This document shows, piece by piece, positions 7,041 to 37,911 of a stretch of DNA of 64,000 bases (its first letter is position 1; each line of letters starts with the position of its first letter). The notes under the pieces were generated by a model. It saw nothing but the letters and a program-made list of their open reading frames with translations. It ran no database searches and was not told where the DNA came from. Origin of the DNA: a phage. Location: the sequence record OZ346219.1. The stretch is one strand, 5' to 3'. The position numbers and the translations under genes are program-made.

Positions 7041-7557
7041 AAAATTGGTCCAAGCTAGGCAATTCCTCGGTCAATACATCTTCAACCTTTGGCGCTTTCG
7101 GTTTATTGACCGATTCCTCGTAGTTGTTGATTTTATCGTAAATGTCCTGTATGAATGCCTCATCAGCAATCTGGCACATATCAGCGTCGCGTTCGTCATA
7201 TACATGATGCACAAAATATTTGTATTTTGCGGCTGTCGCTGTTCTCTCTTTTTTAATGCGCTGTACAAAAGCATTAAAGCACGCTTGCGTGATGTAAGCA
7301 TGAGGATTTTTATACTTTGTCTCGTCAAAATTAATCAAACCCTTGACCGCCGCTTCGATTCCGTCGTCGATCATTTCTTCGCGCCACGTTTGACTATAAC
7401 CAGAAAAGTTAAAACGACGTGATAGATTTTTAGAGATTTGCATAATTGCTAGGCCGATTTGATCGCTCATTGGAACTTGCCGACCTTCTGCTGCAATTTG
7501 TTGTTTCCAACGGCAAATTTCTTCGTAAAGCTCTTTATTGTTTACATAATCAGACAC
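7024..7557 (-). CDS. 55: Late-transcription sigma factor gp55
   Basis: [11 protein letters not shown]...[58 protein letters not shown] nearly identical in blocks to T4 gp55. Confidence 0.9.
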
Positions 7558-7597: not shown

Positions 7598-9067
7598 CTA
7601 TTCCCCATTACCATTATACTTTCTTTGCTTAGTTATCCACACTCTAACCATCTCTACAGATTCGCCGTCAGACGGATCAAGAGTTTTTCCTTTTTTCTTC
7701 ATGCGGTACTTAAATCCGTTAAATCTTGCATTCTCTTGCTCGTTAAAGTCGAACATCTTTTTAAATGATTTTCGCCCTTTACGTTCACCACATTCTAGCG
7801 GAATCATTCGATCTGTTATTACATTGGCATTAGGCAGAAACGTTTTTAGATAATCCACCAACGCCCAATCAGGAACATATAGATTAACATTCTCCTTGCT
7901 CTCGTTGTCTCTCAGGTTACAACGCAAACATAATTGAAATGCTGGTTCCAGATAATCAGACACATGACGCGCTTTCAAAAACTCGTTTGTCGGGAGATCA
8001 CAACTATTAGCAAGACCTTTTAAAATATCAATCTCCCATCGTTGAGGGTTAAAGCTGAACATCACAGCAACATTTTTATGATGAATGTAAGAGTTAAGAC
8101 CATAAGACCCGTAAGGTATCCGCTCACCAATACCATTTGTACACGCTTCACGGTCCCGATTCACGGTATAAATGAAGTCATCGCCACATTCATTTTTAAC
8201 CATATCAACAAGACGTTCAAAGGTATTGTTTGTTTCTGACTGGTGACGCGACCATCGTTCAGAGTCCGTCATAAGGATGATATTAACTCTATCTGTATTT
8301 TTATACTCTTTGAAATATAGTCTGGATTCTAGCGCACTCGGAACAAAATCGCAATTTGCATAGTATCGTAGATACTTCCCACTATATGTATCAAAGAGAT
8401 TTGCACATGCTATCGTAACCTTTTTAAAGTCTCCCCACGTACCGTGTTTGTTATCGTTCAAGAAAACAATTTTCGACCCATTCTTCCGGTGTCCTTCGTT
8501 ATGTTTTACCATAACGTTGATTTTCTTCTCTAATAACGCCTCATAAAGCCCTCTAAGAGAAGAATCGATCATATCAGTACCATCCTTCGCACTTTCTATC
8601 TTTTCTTTGATAGCGGCCTTCTCAGAGTCTTTTAGAACTAAGTTCTGTAGGCATTCCGATTCGTCGGCGATTGGTTCGCAATGCTTAGTGATAAGTTCAA
8701 GATTAGACTTAAACGGATACTCATTAAATTCAACCAGTTGAGGAACTTCATCAATGTAAAGAGCATAATCACCAAACATTTTTGAACGTTCCATATTAGA
8801 TAACGCTGTATGTGTAATGAATATCACATCAGCACCATCTTTAACTGATTGCATTATCGACGCTTGCACTGTCTTAAGGCTTCTTAGTCTTGTGCTATCA
8901 ATCAAGACAGCACGACCGCCCATTCTTTTAAACTTATTGTAAGATTGTTCACTTAAAACACGAGATGGCGAAGCAATAACCGCTTTTTCTTTTGTCTCTA
9001 GGACGTGGGAAAGTATAGCATCAGTTTTCCCCGCCGCTGGCAATGCGATTAATGTTTCAATCTTCAT
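7598..9067 (-). CDS. Uncharacterised P-loop NTPase (489 aa)
   Basis: Walker A-like LPAAGKT near N-terminus and Walker B-like ALYIDEV about 95 aa later; ATG overlaps stop of upstream ORF (TAATG); no match to T4 helicases/ligase that I can recall. Confidence 0.6.
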   Translation of the reverse strand: MKIETLIALPAAGKTDAILSHVLETKEKAVIASPSRVLSEQSYNKFKRMGGRAVLIDSTRLRSLKTVQASIMQSVKDGADVIFITHTALSNMERSKMFGDYALYIDEVPQLVEFNEYPFKSNLELITKHCEPIADESECLQNLVLKDSEKAAIKEKIESAKDGTDMIDSSLRGLYEALLEKKINVMVKHNEGHRKNGSKIVFLNDNKHGTWGDFKKVTIACANLFDTYSGKYLRYYANCDFVPSALESRLYFKEYKNTDRVNIILMTDSERWSRHQSETNNTFERLVDMVKNECGDDFIYTVNRDREACTNGIGERIPYGSYGLNSYIHHKNVAVMFSFNPQRWEIDILKGLANSCDLPTNEFLKARHVSDYLEPAFQLCLRCNLRDNESKENVNLYVPDWALVDYLKTFLPNANVITDRMIPLECGERKGRKSFKKMFDFNEQENARFNGFKYRMKKKGKTLDPSDGESVEMVRVWITKQRKYNGNGE

Positions 9068-9375: not shown

Positions 9376-9534
9376 TTACTTAATGATACTTACTTTACCA
9401 GATCCATGACAATGAGCGCAACACCCATCACCACGCAATCCTGTTCCGTTACAGTGTTTACACTTCTTCAACGGTAAAGCCATTATAGCAAATAAAGCAA
9501 TAATGAATACCGAAACTAAATTCTCAATAATCAT
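9376..9534 (-). CDS. Micro-protein (52 aa) with N-terminal hydrophobic helix and DnaJ-type CxxCxGxG zinc-finger repeats
   Basis: Hand-translated: MIIENLVSVFIIALFAIMALPLKKCKHCNGTGLRGDGCCAHCHGSGKVSIIK; not in ORF track (<60 aa). Confidence 0.4.
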   Translation of the reverse strand: MIIENLVSVFIIALFAIMALPLKKCKHCNGTGLRGDGCCAHCHGSGKVSIIK

Positions 9535-9793
9535 AAATCGCCCTCAGTTCTTTATAGCCTCCAATGTGCTCGTTGTCAATGAATATCTGGGGGTATACAA
9601 ACCGGAGGCTCTTTGAGTTCAGCCTCCCCGCCAGTTCTTCAATCATATCACGGTCGGGAATAATGTCAACCCCGACCTGCTTGAATACTGGTTTAAGTGT
9701 ATATGGAATACCCAGATCATCCAGTAGCTTCATTGCACTAATACAACCATAACAATGATAAGCCTCTTTCGGTATACCGTATATCTCGATCAT
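9524..9793 (-). CDS. Glutaredoxin-like protein (NrdH-like)
   Basis: CYGC redox motif near N-terminus, about 89 aa, C-terminal IGGY motif; position corresponds to T4 nrdH. Confidence 0.7.
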   Translation of the reverse strand: MIEIYGIPKEAYHCYGCISAMKLLDDLGIPYTLKPVFKQVGVDIIPDRDMIEELAGRLNSKSLRFVYPQIFIDNEHIGGYKELRAIYDY

Positions 9794-10266
9794 TTCTCAG
9801 CCTTTAATCTTTCTAGTTCTTCTTCCAGTTCCTTGATCCGTTGGTCACGTTCAAAGTCACGCTGCAACTTAGTGGCGAATACTCGTTTAAACTGATTGTA
9901 ATCATCGATTTTAAACACTTCTTCTTCGCCATAGCGACGCACAGAAACTTCGTAGTTATTGAAGAATTGTTGCATCATTGCTTCGGATGATAGTTCTGCT
10001 GATACTACTTTAAAATATTGATCTTCGGTAGGTGAAAACCAATTACAAGCATAAAGATAAACCTTTTCATTGTCTGGACACTGGTAAGCCTTACCATCGA
10101 TTTCAATCACAGAAACATATTCAGGTATAGTAGATGAATCAATAGCTAAGACTTTAAACTGACGGTCCCCGATAAACTCGGAGATCACACGATTCGCATC
10201 ACTGGTTGCAAAGGCTTTACGCGCTTGTTCGTTTTTCCACTGATAGGTCATGCCAACAACAAACAT
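9790..10266 (-). CDS. Paralogue family member 4 (divergent WEVGKTY-domain protein)
   Basis: N-terminus MFVVGMTYQWK aligns to MKWEVGKTYTWK of neighbours; C-terminal coiled-coil tail. Confidence 0.55.
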   Translation of the reverse strand: MFVVGMTYQWKNEQARKAFATSDANRVISEFIGDRQFKVLAIDSSTIPEYVSVIEIDGKAYQCPDNEKVYLYACNWFSPTEDQYFKVVSAELSSEAMMQQFFNNYEVSVRRYGEEEVFKIDDYNQFKRVFATKLQRDFERDQRIKELEEELERLKAEK

Positions 10267-10267
10267 A

Positions 10268-11092
10268 TTACCAACCTCGCTCTTTACCAATCAAAAATTC
10301 AACTTCACGACGTTTAATGTCTTCTTGAAGGTCTTTAATCTTCTGGCGATCTTGCATTATTTCGTCCATCTTGTCAAGTGCTGCGATGAAATCATCGAAA
10401 CGTTCAAAGGTTTTACCTTCATTTGCTTCGCTAAATTTAACCATTGTCAGGCCATAACGACTACTAAACAGACGTTTCAACTGTCCAACGATCTTAGAAT
10501 CAGTGGTTATAACTTCCAATTCTTCTACTTCACGAAAGAATTTTCTATCAGAATCAATAAACCAGCTAGTTCCTTTATGGTCGCTATCTTCGGTTGCACT
10601 CATTAGAGTATGGTCTTTACCATCAATTTCAATTACATTAACTTGCCCACATAGACTAACATTTTTAACAGTAAAAGGTCTATAATTTATTGCTCGTGCA
10701 ATAACATAATTAAGGTTAGATACGTTTTCAGCATAATGACAGAAGTCGGTCATAGCATTCGCATCTTTCCAAGTATAAGTTTTACCAACTTCCCATTTCT
10801 GGGGAACTTCTTCAACTTCACGAAAGAATTTTCGATCGAATGGACTAAAGAAATATGTTGCAGTCCAAATGTCTTTTCCTGTAGCAGTTTTCGCCGTATG
10901 ATAAACACCGTCTAGCTCTATTGCATTAATCCAACCGTTACCCTCGATCTCGATGATGGTAAATGGCTTGTCACCAATAGCTGCACTAATATCGCTGTTA
11001 AGTGGAGAAAGAACACCTTCTCCGTTAGTAATAAACTCAGTTTTAGAGTTTTCATCTTTCCAAGTGTAAGTTTTACCAATTTCCCATTTCAT
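10268..11092 (-). CDS. Paralogue family member 3, two tandem WEVGKTY domains
   Basis: MKWEIGKTYTWKD... and internal QKWEVGKTYTWKD..., each followed by DRKFFREVEE. Confidence 0.6.
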   Translation of the reverse strand: MKWEIGKTYTWKDENSKTEFITNGEGVLSPLNSDISAAIGDKPFTIIEIEGNGWINAIELDGVYHTAKTATGKDIWTATYFFSPFDRKFFREVEEVPQKWEVGKTYTWKDANAMTDFCHYAENVSNLNYVIARAINYRPFTVKNVSLCGQVNVIEIDGKDHTLMSATEDSDHKGTSWFIDSDRKFFREVEELEVITTDSKIVGQLKRLFSSRYGLTMVKFSEANEGKTFERFDDFIAALDKMDEIMQDRQKIKDLQEDIKRREVEFLIGKERGW

Positions 11093-11104
11093 AATATATT
11101 CCCC

Positions 11105-11569
11105 TTAACCGATTTTATCAAGTTCGTTTAATGCTTTCTCTGCTTCCGGTATAGCTTGCACCCTTTCCGGCATTTTGTCAAGAAAATCTTTCAACTCTTC
11201 AAAACTGGAGATATGACGCAAGGCATTAGCACCGATAGCCGCATGTGATTTGCATTCAAAGCGAATTTTATAATTATCCATAGCCAATTTGAGAAGATCA
11301 ATTAGTTTAGATTCTTCTGGAATAATAATTTCTTCAAATCTGCTACGGTCGTGACACAGAAACCAACAATATAGACCTACATCGGTTGAACTCATATAAG
11401 TTCCATCATGAAGATATACAGATCGCACGTATCCTTTTTTCGCATCAACCGACGCAACTTTAAACGGTAATCTCAGATATTTCAAATAATCAACATCATA
11501 CCATTTAAAAAATTGTTTTGCATCTTTTACATCTTTCCACGCATAGGTCTTACCAACTTCCCATTTCAT
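11105..11569 (-). CDS. Paralogue family member 2 (WEVGKTY domain)
   Basis: MKWEVGKTYAWKD at ATG 11569. Confidence 0.6.
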   Translation of the reverse strand: MKWEVGKTYAWKDVKDAKQFFKWYDVDYLKYLRLPFKVASVDAKKGYVRSVYLHDGTYMSSTDVGLYCWFLCHDRSRFEEIIIPEESKLIDLLKLAMDNYKIRFECKSHAAIGANALRHISSFEELKDFLDKMPERVQAIPEAEKALNELDKIG

Positions 11570-11573
11570 AATA

Positions 11574-12101
11574 TCATCTCTCATTTTTGATACGTGATTC
11601 TAATTGGATCATACGGTCGCGCGTTTGCTTATATTCTCGGATAGCACCGATCCGGCTAGGCATACCATCCAGTACGCTCTTAATACCTTCTAGGGTAGTG
11701 ATTTTAGCAATGCTATTATGTAACCCCATCTTATCGATCAACTGAATGTCGTAGGCTTCCATAAGCAGACCCAGGAGTTCTAAAGTTAGGTCTTCTTCTT
11801 TTTCTTCCGATTCTGGAATCTTAGGTTCAATAGTAACTTCGGTAAAGAAACGACGCTCACCAGACCAAAACCACACACCGGAACAGCCAATAGGGGATTC
11901 TTTTAACGTCATAGAGTCGTAACCACTTCCGATAATAGTAATTTCTCTAACATCACCATCATCGTCAATGTCTTCTACCATAAACGGGCGACCAGCCAAC
12001 AGGTCCACAATACATCTGTTAATAGACGACGAAAATTTAGTCAGTTCGGCTTTCGACGCTTCACATTCAATCTTGTAAGTTTTACCAACTTCCCATTCCA
12101 T
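11574..12101 (-). CDS. Paralogue family member 1 (WEVGKTY domain)
   Basis: MEWEVGKTYKIE after GAGGTGA SD. Confidence 0.6.
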   Translation of the reverse strand: MEWEVGKTYKIECEASKAELTKFSSSINRCIVDLLAGRPFMVEDIDDDGDVREITIIGSGYDSMTLKESPIGCSGVWFWSGERRFFTEVTIEPKIPESEEKEEDLTLELLGLLMEAYDIQLIDKMGLHNSIAKITTLEGIKSVLDGMPSRIGAIREYKQTRDRMIQLESRIKNER

Positions 12102-12832: not shown

Positions 12833-13381
12833 TTATTTTAAATTTTTTCGAATGTAGTCAGACCATTCCTTCCCTGTCAGTTCGGTCCCATTCTGGAAAC
12901 TGAAATATTCATACGGCATCGAGTCAAGATAAAACAGGATCATACATCGCGCCATATAATACCAATCACGATTAAAGTAAACTACGTTATCGCCAGTACC
13001 ATCAGCACCTTTATCATAACCATCGCGGGTACGGGCGACCCATTGAATAGTATCATTTTTCTCACGGATCGTAACAGGTTCCCAATATCCAGCACATCCA
13101 GCATGACCACACGAACAAGTAAGGAAATATTGTCCTTTTGCTTTGTTGTCGTCCCATTCACGATGGATTGGTTCGATCTCGTGAAACAGTGCTAAGCAAT
13201 CATGATTATGCAACACTGGCTTACCATCAATCAATGCATGGAATGTATACAAACGACCCGTAGACAAATAGCTATCCTCACGCTCAACCAGTTCAATAGC
13301 AATCTTTTTAGCTCGTTCTTTGTGTCGTTGTGCTTTACGCTTACGGTTTAATGATTTCATATTCACCTCACACATTATCAA
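12833..13381 (-). CDS. Hypothetical protein
   Basis: 182-aa ORF between nrdD and nrdG. Confidence 0.45.
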   Translation of the reverse strand: MIMCEVNMKSLNRKRKAQRHKERAKKIAIELVEREDSYLSTGRLYTFHALIDGKPVLHNHDCLALFHEIEPIHREWDDNKAKGQYFLTCSCGHAGCAGYWEPVTIREKNDTIQWVARTRDGYDKGADGTGDNVVYFNRDWYYMARCMILFYLDSMPYEYFSFQNGTELTGKEWSDYIRKNLK

Positions 13382-13917
13382 AGGTCGCGATATAGTACAT
13401 TATGAAAATGAGAACTTGCATTACCAATATTGTAGATAATAAATTCTTCATCCGGCGCTTGCGCTACAAATTGAGTATGAGCAACCGCCACAACCTTAAA
13501 AATACGATCCGTGATCTTGTGTTTAATTTCTGCCCCTACTTCCATAGGAACATATTCATTTGTTTCTGTTTCAGTCGCAAAACAGCCATCTTCTTCATAA
13601 GCACGAACAAATCGATCGCAATCAGTACGCTTAACAAATTCAAGAGTATACAATTCTCGTGAATTGTCGGTATAGACCAATACAGAATTATTATGATAGC
13701 GAATCACATACAGGTTATTATCATCGTCAATTACGCAAAAGCTACGGATTCCTTCGCCTTTACTCCAGCAGATATTAACCACCGTTCCTCTAATAAAAAA
13801 ACTTTCCTTTAAATTAAAACTAGTCAATGTGCTAGCGTGCATTTTAACAACAACACCATCGCCAATTTCCAGTTTACGAAGTTTAACTTCTTTGTTCAGT
13901 ACACAAAACATCATCAT
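13378..13917 (-). CDS. Hypothetical protein
   Basis: 179-aa ORF, first gene after early promoter at 13947-13974. Confidence 0.45.
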   Translation of the reverse strand: MMMFCVLNKEVKLRKLEIGDGVVVKMHASTLTSFNLKESFFIRGTVVNICWSKGEGIRSFCVIDDDNNLYVIRYHNNSVLVYTDNSRELYTLEFVKRTDCDRFVRAYEEDGCFATETETNEYVPMEVGAEIKHKITDRIFKVVAVAHTQFVAQAPDEEFIIYNIGNASSHFHNVLYRDL

Positions 13918-13946: not shown

Positions 13947-13974
13947 ATTATACATTAGCTAATCATGTTGTCAA
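13947..13974 (-). promoter_or_regulatory. Sigma70-like early promoter (TTGACA-16-TATAAT)
   Basis: Reverse complement reads TTGACA...TATAAT upstream of ORF 13378..13917. Confidence 0.55.
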
Positions 13975-13980
13975 CACCCC

Positions 13981-14011
13981 AAAACGAAAAAGCCGACCCT
14001 TTCGGATCGGC
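13981..14011 (-). terminator. Rho-independent terminator downstream of nrdD
   Basis: GCCGAUCCGAAAGGGUCGGC hairpin followed by UUUUUCGUUUU on minus strand. Confidence 0.6.
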
Positions 14012-14017
14012 TGAAAT

Positions 14018-15924: not shown

Positions 15925-16419
15925 TTATTTTACCAGTTCTGCTAATTCTTTTTCTTTAGCTTCTAGTTCAGCTTTAAGCTGTTTAATCTCTTGTCGCTTC
16001 TTATTAGCGGCTTCCTGCTTACTATTTCGGATAACCTGATCTAGATACAACTCCCAATCCTGAATATTTTTGATAATGTATCCGTCAACATTAATTGGTC
16101 GGAGATTCAGTACAGCTTCCAGTTTAGTCGCAAAAACTTTAATTGCTGGCGTGAAGTATTCATATTCGTTATCTTCAAACCAATAACCTAGACTTGCATT
16201 ATCAATACGAAGACGAAGTTCAAGATCAAGGTCTTTATCTTCGGTGTAAAGATCTTTCACCTGACCCAGCGAACTAACAACAACTTTAAAACGAATTTTA
16301 TCTACACCACCAAACACATCAGTAAGTATACCAGCAATTGAGCTATTAGCGCAAGATTGGTCGCTGAATGCGTCAAGGTTTTCTTTAGTTACAGTATACC
16401 AAACATCTTGTACCCACAT
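15925..16419 (-). CDS. Hypothetical protein with C-terminal coiled coil
   Basis: 164-aa ORF, ATG at 16419 after conserved GAGGATTATATT leader. Confidence 0.5.
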   Translation of the reverse strand: MWVQDVWYTVTKENLDAFSDQSCANSSIAGILTDVFGGVDKIRFKVVVSSLGQVKDLYTEDKDLDLELRLRIDNASLGYWFEDNEYEYFTPAIKVFATKLEAVLNLRPINVDGYIIKNIQDWELYLDQVIRNSKQEAANKKRQEIKQLKAELEAKEKELAELVK

Positions 16420-16450
16420 AATATAATCCTCTCGTTGTTTAGATGGGAGT

Positions 16451-16479
16451 ATCTTACTACTCCCGTTTCATCATGTCAA
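16451..16479 (-). promoter_or_regulatory. Sigma70-like early promoter with palindrome spanning the -10 element
   Basis: rc: TTGACA-17-TAAGAT; GGGAGTAGTAAGATACTCCC inverted repeat. Confidence 0.5.
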
Positions 16480-17042
16480 GCGTTAAATGACTTTTGGATC
16501 TCTTTCAGTTCAGCTACTTTATCGGCGCTGAATTTAGCGTAGGTATCATGTCGAATAATTTCACTTTCAAGAAAGGTTTCCAGCCGAGATCTATTTTCAA
16601 TAAGGAACTCTTTCAGGTCTTCCGCGTTCTTGATAAAGATTTTATTGTCGGTAATGTCATCTTCAATCGCAAAGGAGATAGAGCGAACTTTACCAAACAA
16701 GTTAATCAGATCTTCCAGAGATTCTTCTTTCTTAACTGGTTTCATTTCTTCAAACTGCTTTTTAGTGATGCGTTTAAAGTATTTGCGCTCGCTTGCATCA
16801 ATCATGATTGACGCACCCTCATAATCATGAGTTTCTACCAAATACACTTTACCCATAACATTAACCGTAAGAACTTTAAAGCCCCTGTGAAGCACACCAT
16901 ACAGGAACTTGTTATGTTGTGGGTAGCGTTTAACAAATTCCTCTGCGGACTCAGCATTACGGAAAGTGTAATAACGACCTCGTTCAAAAACAGCATCAGT
17001 TGAAGACTTAACCGGATACAATTTATACGTTTTCTGTACCAT
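16476..17042 (-). CDS. Hypothetical protein
   Basis: ORF with ATG at 17042 after GAGGATTATATT. Confidence 0.5.
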   Translation of the reverse strand: MVQKTYKLYPVKSSTDAVFERGRYYTFRNAESAEEFVKRYPQHNKFLYGVLHRGFKVLTVNVMGKVYLVETHDYEGASIMIDASERKYFKRITKKQFEEMKPVKKEESLEDLINLFGKVRSISFAIEDDITDNKIFIKNAEDLKEFLIENRSRLETFLESEIIRHDTYAKFSADKVAELKEIQKSFNA

Positions 17043-17056
17043 AATATAATCCTCTA

Positions 17057-17329
17057 TCATTTCACTAATTGAACAGCACGGAACAGAATGCGCTCACACG
17101 GAAGCAGCATAAATTCCCAACGCGGATCAAAGTCTTTAGCGGTGTATGTTTTCCCATCAACCGAGATTTCACTTACATAACCAACAGGTGACACTTTAAG
17201 AACAGTAAACCCATTCTTGATGACTTCGTAGGTATCTTTCACCCCTTCGTATTCATCATCTAAGAAGTCTTTATGTGCTTGCTCAGATTTAAAAACATAG
17301 GCAACACCGGATTTAAACATCTTACGCAT
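17057..17329 (-). CDS. Hypothetical protein
   Basis: MRKMFKSG... after GGAGAATCAACA leader. Confidence 0.45.
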   Translation of the reverse strand: MRKMFKSGVAYVFKSEQAHKDFLDDEYEGVKDTYEVIKNGFTVLKVSPVGYVSEISVDGKTYTAKDFDPRWEFMLLPCERILFRAVQLVK

Positions 17330-17360
17330 TGTTGATTCTCCTTCTTGATTAGATGGGAGT

Positions 17361-17389
17361 ATTTTACTACTCCCATTTCTTATTGTCAA
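17361..17389 (-). promoter_or_regulatory. Sigma70-like early promoter with palindrome spanning the -10 element
   Basis: rc: TTGACA-17-TAAAAT; GGGAGTAGTAAAATACTCCC. Confidence 0.5.
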
Positions 17390-33428: not shown

Positions 33429-33767
33429 TCACACCTTTAAAGTCATAGACGCATAAACATTAATGCCAGGCCAGTTAGGATCGCAATTATACTCAACATC
33501 CCACAAATAAAGCGGTTTAGATGTATCAGCCAAGTTTTTAAAATCTTCCACCCACATTTCAAGGCTATATGATGGATAAACTAGGCTATCATATCCGCCG
33601 TAACGTTGGCCTACTGGTCGGTCAGTAAAAACTACCTCAAGATCCGGTAATTCTTTTTCAAGGATAACCGCCAGCGCATAAATCAGACGGTCTTCCTTGT
33701 TACGCTGCCGAAGGACCGTTGTCAGTTGGTTTTTCTGGTTCACTAGCAAGCACCTCCACATTTTCAC
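33429..33767 (-). CDS. Hypothetical protein (overlaps upstream ORF; start unclear)
   Basis: 112-aa ORF. Confidence 0.35.
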   Translation of the reverse strand: MKMWRCLLVNQKNQLTTVLRQRNKEDRLIYALAVILEKELPDLEVVFTDRPVGQRYGGYDSLVYPSYSLEMWVEDFKNLADTSKPLYLWDVEYNCDPNWPGINVYASMTLKV

Positions 33768-34020
33768 AGAATGAAATTTTCACAGACACAATTTTACCAT
33801 AAGTGAAGAATGAATATACATTATCGAGATATTCAACGTCGCCTACAATCACATCAAACTGCGGATCAGCAACCGCCGCAACATATTCTACCAGTTCATC
33901 AAGAGAATGCAACTTAATTTCATCAATTCGGCTGTATTTGGTTGCATCTTTAATTTTAAAACCACGTTCTTTCAGTTTGTCAATCAGAATTTCACGCGGA
34001 GTTTCAAACAGTTTGCTCAT
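33700..34020 (-). CDS. Hypothetical protein
   Basis: MSKLFETPREIL... after GAGGATTATATT. Confidence 0.45.
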   Translation of the reverse strand: MSKLFETPREILIDKLKERGFKIKDATKYSRIDEIKLHSLDELVEYVAAVADPQFDVIVGDVEYLDNVYSFFTYGKIVSVKISFCENVEVLASEPEKPTDNGPSAA

Positions 34021-37536: not shown

Positions 37537-37911
37537 TTAAGAATATTTTACTTCGTCTACAATGTCTTTCATGACATTGATTTCCATTCCGGTCAGAACA
37601 CGTTGGAACATGTGCTGAACATACGCTTTCAGATATTCATTTGATGGCTTGCTATCAAAAGTCTTTTTAGTGTAGTAGTCATCACCGAAAGCTACTGTAA
37701 TTACATTTTCGTCGTCGTTCCAAGCGATATAAGCAAATTTGCCGTTATCCCAGAAGCGAGCACTAATTGCTACTTTTGTTGAATCGAATCCTACTTCGCT
37801 GTGAGATTCAAGAACTACTTGCGTGCCAGTTTCTTTATGAATGTAGTAGCGGGATACTAAGTCAAAGTTACGGGTGTAGTGACATTCGAATTTATCTTTA
37901 AACAACATCAT
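37537..37911 (-). CDS. Hypothetical protein
   Basis: 124-aa ORF after early promoter. Confidence 0.45.
   Translation of the reverse strand: MMLFKDKFECHYTRNFDLVSRYYIHKETGTQVVLESHSEVGFDSTKVAISARFWDNGKFAYIAWNDDENVITVAFGDDYYTKKTFDSKPSNEYLKAYVQHMFQRVLTGMEINVMKDIVDEVKYS

Follow-up and report, generated by a model that had tools for sequence, protein, structure and literature searches.

We analyzed a 64,000-nucleotide stretch of phage DNA (sequence record OZ346219.1; hereafter, the window) in which four consecutive minus-strand genes, G1 to G4, lie between nrdG and the glutaredoxin gene nrdH (9790-12101) and together carry five copies of a domain of about 90 amino acids. Profile comparisons make it highly probable that these genes, with three more located 5′ of nrdD, belong to the GoF/Frd.2/MotB.1 family of phage T4. 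Among close relatives of this phage, the domain appears to be replaced as a discrete cassette within otherwise conserved genes. The 3.2 kb around the array is 90-99% identical to 59 GenBank phage genomes, all of them RB49-like coliphages (Krischvirus, Straboviridae), the closest being phage kaaroe at 98.5%; by this identity, the window is an RB49-like coliphage of the genus Krischvirus. The genes of the array and their parts (NTD and CTD, N-terminal and C-terminal domain) are as follows.

11574-12101, minus strand: G1 (equivalent to RB49p051), 175 amino acids, beginning MEWEVGKTYKIE
11823-12101, minus strand: barrel NTD of G1, followed by an acidic linker
11574-11822, minus strand: helical/beta CTD of G1
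11105-11569, minus strand: G2 (equivalent to RB49p050), 154 amino acids, beginning MKWEVGKTYAWKD; alternative ATG at 11584
11315-11569, minus strand: NTD of G2, the sole basic NTD (isoelectric point, pI, 8.5)
10268-11092, minus strand: G3 (equivalent to RB49p049), 274 amino acids, beginning MKWEIGKTYTWKD; second copy KWEVGKTYTWKD from residue 99
10802-11092, minus strand: first NTD of G3, closed by DRKFFREVEE
10514-10801, minus strand: second NTD of G3, closed by DRKFFREVEE
10268-10513, minus strand: CTD of G3
9790-10266, minus strand: G4 (equivalent to RB49p048), 158 amino acids, beginning MFVVGMTYQWK
9994-10266, minus strand: NTD of G4

The earlier note on this DNA had described four consecutive minus-strand genes with shared N-terminal motifs and a 274-amino-acid member holding the domain twice, each copy followed by DRKFFREVEE; the genes, the motifs and both copies in G3 are all present in the sequence. 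The four genes share one orientation, with spacers of 1-12 nucleotides (nt) or overlaps between them, and a Shine-Dalgarno (SD)-like GAGG/AGGGG stands 6-10 nt 5′ of each. The CTD of G4 terminates in a charged helix (KELEEELERLKAEK), and the G4 stop overlaps the start of nrdH. Pfam identifies the flanking genes as nrdG (Fer4_12, 2.4e-43) and nrdH (Glutaredoxin, 6.9e-5). Equivalents of G1-G4 are intact annotated coding sequences in RB49 and 12 other GenBank or IMG/VR Krischvirus loci, except for G1 in phage KFS-EC; RB49p048-RB49p051 and their counterparts in the other examined records are labelled “hypothetical protein”.

The five domain copies can be aligned over their full length, with G6, T8, Y9, F40, F78 and F86 invariant. 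In pairwise BLASTP among the five, the two copies within G3 (G3a and G3b) share 49% identity (expect value, E, 1e-28), and the other pairs mostly 28-35% (E 2e-5 to 5e-12). G1 and G4 are not detected directly by pairwise BLASTP and G2 and G4 only marginally (7e-3); G3 connects both. Real alignments of G1-G2, G3a-G3b and G4-C2a (the last a gene of the second cluster described below) score 28-88 bits against a maximum of 20-23 bits over 100 shuffles, and the likeness of the five copies is far above chance. A profile built from the five copies, run against the 621 open reading frames of the window, retrieved the array genes at E 3e-32 to 1e-84. In the DNA, a 57-nt segment encoding (K)WEVGKTYxWKD occurs in four in-register copies (at 10743, 11034, 11511 and 12043; 61-82% identity), and a 30-nt segment encoding DRKFFREVEE in two (at 10520 and 10808; 93% identical, 288 nt apart); these repeats form the conserved edges on either side of divergent NTD cores. 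This is a real tandem paralog family, not an artifact of frame calling. Because all copies are intact and under purifying selection (ratio of nonsynonymous to synonymous divergence, dN/dS, 0.08-0.41; see below), neither mis-called frames nor a single conserved and expressed copy describes this family.

PHROG and hhalign comparisons identify what the earlier note called a “WEVGKTYxWKD domain” as the beta-barrel found at the N terminus of proteins of a published family, GoF/Frd.2/MotB.1. Aligned by hhalign with T4 GoF (NP_049624), the five-copy profile gave a probability of 95.5% and E 1.5e-8 over GoF residues 3-92. The 165 positions of phrog_5347 span the full length of G1, G2, G3 and G4 (E 2.7e-66 for G1, 1e-57 for G2 and 2.4e-60 for G4), and weaker links lead from G1-G4 to about a dozen further PHROGs, two of which are labelled “goF mRNA metabolism modulator”; about 15 PHROGs are tied to the GoF-like domain. 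The goF-labelled PHROGs are matched by G3 (1.1e-9) and G4 (3.5e-6 and 6.2e-5), while G1 and G2 are joined to the family through phrog_5347/622 and through G3. A broad profile of 25 barrels detects T4 MotB.1 (5.5e-4) and RB49 Dc2 (1e-8), both outside its training set, and RefSeq labels some of the RB49 equivalents of the second-cluster genes “goF mRNA metabolism modulator” or “frd.2”. G1-G4 have no Pfam match at E 0.1 or better other than DUF4686, which we judged to be noise, and a profile of 22 family members found no solved relative in the PDB by sequence (best E 0.06). Because a word-indexed protein search returned only 26 hits, close ones, and an exhaustive HMMER search of 1.84 billion representatives only 29 matches at E 1e-3 or better, the GoF-like family appears small and divergent at the sequence level. 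Its alignment holds no conserved stretch of 7-10 columns.

GoF goes back to the rho-suppressor work of the 1970s and 80s. T4 GoF (comC-alpha) is the founding member of the family described by Kim et al. in 2025 (PMC12152347), with an “LSm-like fold” whose barrel has FeoA and SH3-like domains as its closest PDB neighbors and leads through a flexible linker into varied CTDs. The wild-type proteins are abundant early (about 20,000 copies of GoF per cell), dispensable in laboratory hosts and dimer-forming, and a His-tag GoF pull-down from K-12 gave GoF alone as the dominant bands (PMC12152347). The goF mutations were originally selected as suppressors of rho alleles; only the suppressor GoF(D25Y) stabilizes gene 41 mRNA: with it, a reporter bearing the gene 41 5′ untranslated region (5′UTR) has a longer half-life, an effect that is post-transcriptional and independent of Hfq, and wild-type GoF and MotB.1 have little effect in the same assay (PMC12152347). 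The same paper defines the family, reports no phenotype for wild-type GoF, MotB.1 or Frd.2, and could not model GoF or MotB.1 with confidence as a homodimer or homohexamer in AlphaFold3 (PMC12152347). Taxonomy lines place Krischvirus outside Tevenvirinae, the subfamily named in the title of that paper.

The family is also wider within the window than the earlier note had it: its array of four genes and five copies at 9790-12101 stands, and the five-copy profile additionally matches three minus-strand genes beyond the array, 5′ of nrdD (15925-17329).

17057-17329, minus strand: C2a (equivalent to RB49p060), 90 amino acids, NTD only; profile E 7e-9
16476-17060, minus strand: C2b (equivalent to RB49p059), 188-194 amino acids (194 in the profile match), NTD and CTD; profile E 1e-4
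15925-16419, minus strand: C2c (equivalent to RB49p057), 164 amino acids, the most divergent; profile E 4e-3

In PHROGs, C2a matches phrog_16115, phrog_5347 (5e-8) and the goF family phrog_8944 (3.7e-5), and C2b matches phrog_8944 at 3.1e-101; C2b also finds the T4 GoF NTD by BLASTP (3e-6, small set), and its RB49 copy carries the RefSeq label “goF mRNA metabolism modulator”. Family membership is less certain for C2c, which matches phrog_3710 at 2.4e-4, a PHROG also matched by G1, G3 and G4, and whose NTD and CTD can be aligned with the others. The window thus totals seven family genes and eight barrel domains. RB49 and the other 12 loci have an extra second-cluster gene of 392 amino acids with three barrels and a CTD, as seen by sequence inspection and PHROG stretches. 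A further member, RB49 Dc2 (RB49p021, 211 amino acids; locus L019 11993-12628; profile E 1e-8), lies outside the window, has a structural match to ECD7 Dc2 in BFVD and sits directly 5′ of helicase gene 41. As GoF(D25Y) acts on the 5′UTR of gene 41 in T4, this is a link by position that may or may not be coincidental. The total for Krischvirus (RB49) comes to about nine genes and 12 barrels, with RB49 84.5-116 kb left out of the scan. The profile scan found no member in RB49 116-164 kb, the RB49 position equivalent to T4 goF/motB.1 has none, and the T4 stretch between gene 55 and nrdC.5 has none, its slots at nrdG-nrdH and nrdD-49 being essentially empty.

We set aside two marginal profile matches in the window, 33700-34020 (1e-3) and 37537-37911 (0.03), where inspection found the family motifs absent. 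Two minus-strand genes of the nrdD-nrdG interval, 12833-13381 (phrog_8242) and 13378-13917 (phrog_14838), fall in other PHROGs and lie outside the GoF-like family; among Krischvirus strains they range over 528-561 nt and 534-543 nt in length.

We then compared 14 Krischvirus versions of the locus (the window, RB49 and the 12 other GenBank or IMG/VR loci). The dN/dS values are simple Nei-Gojobori averages over recombining alleles rather than site models, and were taken between orthologs, synonymous sites being saturated between paralogs at 28-35% identity. nrdD, nrdG and nrdH are 99% identical in protein (dN 0.003-0.005, dS 0.06-0.09). For the barrels of G1, G2, the second copy of G3, and G4, mean amino-acid identity is 70-74% with a minimum of 39-56%, at dN 0.18-0.28, dS ~0.7 and dN/dS 0.26-0.41; for the CTDs of G1-G4, the mean is 92-97% and the minimum 69-94%, at dN 0.016-0.043, dS 0.14-0.46 and dN/dS 0.08-0.16. 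The genes present are intact in 14 of 14 genomes, and with dN/dS of 0.08-0.41 throughout, all copies are under purifying selection.

When the window was mapped at the nucleotide level against phages FL04, UPWr_E1, E26 and JK32, a mosaic emerged, with blocks of low identity (54-71%) at 12105-11760, 11550-11280, 10770-10470 and 10215-9945 amid DNA of 92-99% identity. These blocks of ~270-345 nt coincide with the barrels of G1, G2, the second G3 copy and G4, and their breakpoints adjoin the conserved coding edges KWEVGKTY and DRKFFREVEE. The barrel alleles fall into two to five discrete classes per gene, in combinations that differ between genomes: G2 has two NTD classes of 44% identity over a CTD that is 97% identical, and G4 has five NTD classes in 14 genomes. 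Because dS rises together with dN, this variation looks like replacement by old divergent alleles through recombination rather than a burst of point mutation.

These comparisons, which include the copy-number and dN/dS checks that the earlier note had suggested (dN/dS being taken through orthologs), bear out part of its picture and revise the rest. Diversification and copy-number variation among close relatives are evident as allele classes and as gene and domain loss across the 14 genomes. The alleles of this “diversifying” family do vary, but fast point-mutational positive selection is not seen, dN/dS being below 1 everywhere. The “variable C-terminal tails” are variable between paralogs; between strains, it is the NTD that varies and the CTD that is conserved. 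Nor are the tails unrelated, since they align with one another and phrog_5347 covers the proteins over their full length.

Genes and domains are gained and lost as well. KFS-EC lacks G1 and two second-cluster genes, and in AV108 and E26, G3 has one barrel (177-178 amino acids), the missing segment (10860-10515, window coordinates) being in register with the internal 288-nt repeat. The 392-amino-acid three-barrel gene, found in each of the 13 other examined loci, is missing from the window itself; judging by record span lengths, almost all of the 59 genomes probably have it. The second cluster contains two cassettes of the PeSL type.

16435-16479, minus strand: PeSL-type cassette with TTGACA, a GGGAGTA...TACTCCC stem-loop carrying TAAGAT, then SD and ATG
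17345-17389, minus strand: PeSL-type cassette with TTGACA-17-TAAAAT and a stem-loop, directly 5′ of C2a

The two are 87% identical (TTGACA-17-TAAGAT/TAAAAT), with predicted promoters at 16451-16479 and 17361-17389, and repeated PeSL-type cassettes also occur at 7421-7474 and 8654-8709 of another locus, L006. In alignment, the window spacer 16420-16475 is a hybrid of the two ~55-nt kaaroe cassettes that flank the 392-amino-acid gene and are composed of TTGACA, the GGGAGTA...TACTCCC stem-loop, a -10 element and an SD; because the junction has this hybrid form, we infer that the gene was lost from the window by recombination between two PeSL cassettes. PeSLs mediate gain and loss of ORFans between RB49 and phi1 (Arbiol et al. 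2010, PMC2839356), PeSL-flanked ORFan cassettes lie in the hyperplastic regions of these phages (PMC2839356; Comeau et al. 2014, PMC4122927), and nrd genes border plastic regions (PMC2839356). The second cluster (15925-17389) resembles those cassettes, with one gene lost between two of them; a repeated sigma-70 promoter plus stem-loop at indel boundaries, which defines a PeSL, is found in this cluster only, its promoter activity being predicted. The first cluster, in contrast, is without intergenic cassettes, and its exchange units are intragenic barrel-coding segments of ~270-345 nt. In two strains, mobile elements have left further marks near this nrd block: in KMB43 (locus L013 9638-10445), gene 49 is annotated in shortened form and nrdC has a homing endonuclease as its neighbor, and in JSE, nrdD is split by a homing endonuclease.

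Arrays and two-barrel members appear not to be peculiar to Krischvirus and recur across the family, Tevenvirinae included. In one metagenomic T4-like contig, a two-barrel member lies directly 5′ of glutaredoxin and DUF7570, with the synteny seen in the window. Another, SRR14300940_297 (L017 3887-9566), has five consecutive genes of 250-354 amino acids with two or three barrels each, positioned 5′ of segE and nrdD, with SIR2, NADAR and HD-domain genes further upstream. In Yersinia phage MHG19 (Tevenvirinae; L021 2942-5747), a tandem run of four members occupies the interval from dexA to gene 39, the canonical location of goF in T4; one of the four has two barrels.

Set beside the T4 family, the genes of the window share the homologous N-terminal five-stranded barrel of ~90 amino acids, the barrel-linker-CTD layout and the FeoA/SH3-like neighbors, here low-scoring. 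With consensus sigma-70 promoters upstream and genes lost in some strains, they may also share a place in early, dispensable regions of T4-like phages. They differ in that seven genes with eight barrels form two arrays flanking nrdD, nrdG and nrdH, slots that are empty in T4; in that some members carry two or three barrels; in a longer CTD (helix-strand-strand-helix plus a long helix), that of GoF being short; and in the strain-level replacement of barrel cassettes, which the text of PMC12152347 does not describe.

Two predicted elements bear on how the first array may be transcribed.

13991-14012, minus strand: terminator-like hairpin after nrdD, AGCCGATCC...GGTCGGCT plus a T-run
13947-13974, minus strand: sigma-70 promoter of perfect consensus, TTGACA-16-TATAAT (consensus scan)

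Downstream of this promoter, genes run gap-free through nrdG, G1-G4 and nrdH, and it is likely the early promoter of that unit. G1-G4 would accordingly be early genes, transcribed along with the nrd genes under sigma-70-type promoters. The earlier note's placement of the array in a plastic early region agrees with the sigma-70-type promoters and PeSL cassettes predicted there.

To examine the fold, we built an AlphaFold2 (AF2) model of G1 from 22 sequences and read its strands with DSSP, which makes the strand count approximate. The mean predicted local distance difference test score (pLDDT) is 83, above 90 over residues 1-95 and dropping to 60-65 at 91-110. The model opens with strand 1; strands lie at 8-11, 40-45, 51-56 and 86-89, with short bridges at ~63-64 and 78, and two helices (14-23 and 26-35) stand between strands 1 and 2. 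The CTD, at modest confidence, is predicted as a helix, two strands, a helix and a long terminal helix. The G1 model thus shows the bent five-stranded NTD, linker and CTD of the family of Kim et al. In the G3 model, the secondary structure is repeated twice, at a pLDDT of 68.5 and a predicted template modeling score (pTM) of 0.45, too low to judge barrel packing. Foldseek of the G1 model against the PDB gave no significant match; FeoA was the best structural neighbor, with scores too low for a superfamily assignment. Against predicted viral structures (BFVD), there were 73 matches at E 0.001 or better; their sources are T4-like phages with a wide range of hosts, plus a small number of other large myoviruses, and none of the 50 listed carries a functional name.

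The LSm/Hfq fold begins with an N-terminal alpha-helix, after which come five strongly bent strands with Sm1 and Sm2 motifs. The family shares with Hfq/Sm proteins a small bent five-stranded barrel and, in GoF D25Y, a mutant that affects RNA stability, but its barrel is without the N-terminal helix and the Sm motifs, is mostly acidic rather than basic, and is not predicted to form a ring; Hfq/Sm structures were not among the best structural matches of the G1 model. Four of the five barrels are acidic (pI 4.4-5.1, net charge -4.5 to -8.5), and that of G2 has a net charge of +1.7, compared with +3.8 for Hfq residues 1-72 (Hfq pI about 10). Relative to FeoA, the DtxR/IdeR SH3-like domain and Tudor/KOW domains, there is no detectable sequence kinship, a two-helix insert is present, and metal-binding histidines are absent. 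The model supports an “SH3-like small beta-barrel” of SH3/FeoA/Tudor-like topology and does not support an LSm fold proper. Over 22 family members, conservation is complete or nearly so at Y9, F20, F40, V42, V51, F78 and F86 alone, a hydrophobic and aromatic core; because only core residues are conserved across paralogs, the barrel looks like a scaffold with a surface free to vary. Nothing in the conserved residues is catalytic.

The interpretation we favor, tentatively and at a little under an even chance, is that GoF-like proteins are non-enzymatic, swappable binders of strain-variable targets. They would act, probably as dimers, with the barrel as specificity module, as the barrel swaps suggest, and the CTD as a common oligomerization or docking module, a role proposed because GoF and MotB.1 run as dimers. 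The barrel surface would be exchanged as a cassette between near-identical phages, and the targets, rather than a single conserved housekeeping molecule, would be ones that differ between host strains: host or prophage defense or exclusion factors or other strain-specific takeover targets. Arrays, members with two or three domains, and gain or loss at repeated edges or PeSLs would widen or retune the repertoire. We favor strain-variable targets because the barrel alleles reassort, the T4 members are dispensable in K-12 and B, and GoF has no dominant partner in K-12. The pattern is compatible with the “host-takeover or counter-defence arsenal” of the earlier note; a more specific version, in which the arrays are a repertoire of interchangeable recognition domains with the conserved edges as recombination handles, each cassette neutralizing or hijacking a strain-specific host or prophage factor, seems to us rather unlikely. 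Several points weigh against strain-variable binders. With dN/dS below 1 everywhere, positive selection is not demonstrated, and old divergent alleles could be shuffling in a hyperplastic region without any arms race. The class of target is read from the evolutionary pattern alone, CTD dimerization is assumed from gels of GoF and MotB.1, and AF2 confidence is modest for the G3 model and for every CTD region. We saw no likeness to known anti-defense proteins, in an analysis that ran neither PADLOC nor an anti-defense-specific library, and found no anti-defense or essentiality data on genes of the G1-G4 type in the literature. The only functional data on the family concern mRNA stability, namely the effect of GoF D25Y on gene 41 mRNA (PMC12152347).

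Those data agree with what Kim et al. hypothesized for GoF: direct RNA chaperones or mRNA-stability modulators with an LSm/Hfq-like barrel, each paralog acting on particular early or middle transcripts. Homology to GoF, the Hfq-independent rise in reporter half-life with D25Y, the basic G2 barrel and the position of Dc2 directly 5′ of gene 41 in RB49 are in its favor, as is the hhalign register, which would set an R or K opposite GoF G84 (suppressor G84R) in G1 and in the two G3 barrels. We nevertheless hold it unlikely for these genes and rank binding to proteins or complexes above RNA chaperoning, because four of the five barrels are acidic and wild-type GoF does not stabilize RNA; D25Y is read as a gain of function, wild-type MotB.1 also had little effect, the model has two helices inserted after strand 1 in place of an N-terminal one, AlphaFold3 gave no confident oligomer, and conserved phage transcripts are not an obvious driver of binding-domain cassette replacement. 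Tudor/KOW-like docking on a conserved host machine (RNA polymerase, Rho or the degradosome), tuning termination or RNA decay with redundant paralogs, would accord with the origin of goF mutations as rho-allele suppressors, but leaves the discrete reassorting barrel alleles unexplained, and the K-12 pull-down showed no dominant host partner; we rate it quite unlikely. The repeated placement of family genes by nrdD, nrdG, nrdH, glutaredoxin and frd raises the thought of accessory or scaffold proteins of nucleotide metabolism. The adjacency holds in the window, in metagenomic contigs L016 and L017 and, by name and position, for T4 frd.2, and FeoA, the best structural neighbor, partners a nucleotide-binding transporter. 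Yet T4 goF and motB.1, the MHG19 array and RB49 Dc2 lie elsewhere, by genes 39, motB and 41; the T4 nrdG-nrdH and nrdD-49 intervals have no member; nrd genes are known as borders of plastic regions (PMC2839356); and no conserved polar residues hint at a ligand site. Such a role is very improbable. We give equally little credence to functionless or selfish ORFan cassettes that last only through being copied by recombination at PeSLs and repeated edges: genes and domains do come and go between close relatives, and the T4 members are dispensable in the laboratory, but none of the copies in 14 genomes is disrupted, dN/dS is 0.08-0.41 with very conserved CTDs, the family is kept across distant T4-like phages, and GoF reaches its ~20,000 copies per cell.

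As to novelty, the domain family has been described before, and RefSeq already gives goF-like labels to part of the locus; G1-G4 are new members and not a new domain. The text of Kim et al. (PMC12152347) does not refer to RB49, Krischvirus, tandem arrays or duplication, and the PeSL paper (PMC2839356) does not mention the GoF-like family. Three things we did not find in earlier descriptions: the expansion into two arrays around the nrd genes, the members with more than one barrel and, above all, the domain-precise replacement and reassortment of barrel alleles in near-identical phages. The Krischvirus locus amounts to a natural experiment, with discrete reassorting barrel alleles in phages otherwise 95-99% identical, and places natural allele pairs at hand for host panels, defense libraries and RNA or protein interactomes. 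If the targets are host-strain specific, many “hypothetical” early genes of therapeutic T4-like phages would gain a host-range role. Should the counter-defense reading prove true, the GoF family would be a large unrecognized class of modular counter-defense or host-specificity determinants in T4-like phages, which would account for the silence of wild-type GoF in K-12 or B over 40 years. If the targets are not strain-specific, the result is a well-documented paralog expansion of a known family only. Nothing is overturned in any case; the question of what wild-type GoF-family proteins do becomes experimentally approachable.

Three further features of the window lie outside the family. A minus-strand open reading frame of 52 amino acids at 9376-9534, conserved as RB49p046, has a hydrophobic N-terminal helix and a CxxC...CxxC motif (CKHCNGTG...CCAHCHGSG), with weak matches to DnaJ-type zinc-finger models. 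At 7598-9067, also on the minus strand, an open reading frame of 489 amino acids (equivalent to RB49p044) contains a Walker-A-like motif, ALPAAGKT; its syntenic counterpart in metagenomic contig L016 has a weak Pfam DEAD-helicase match. Finally, the GC skew of the window flips near ~44000, from about -0.15 to +0.10, presumably where early genes on the minus strand give way to genes on the plus strand.

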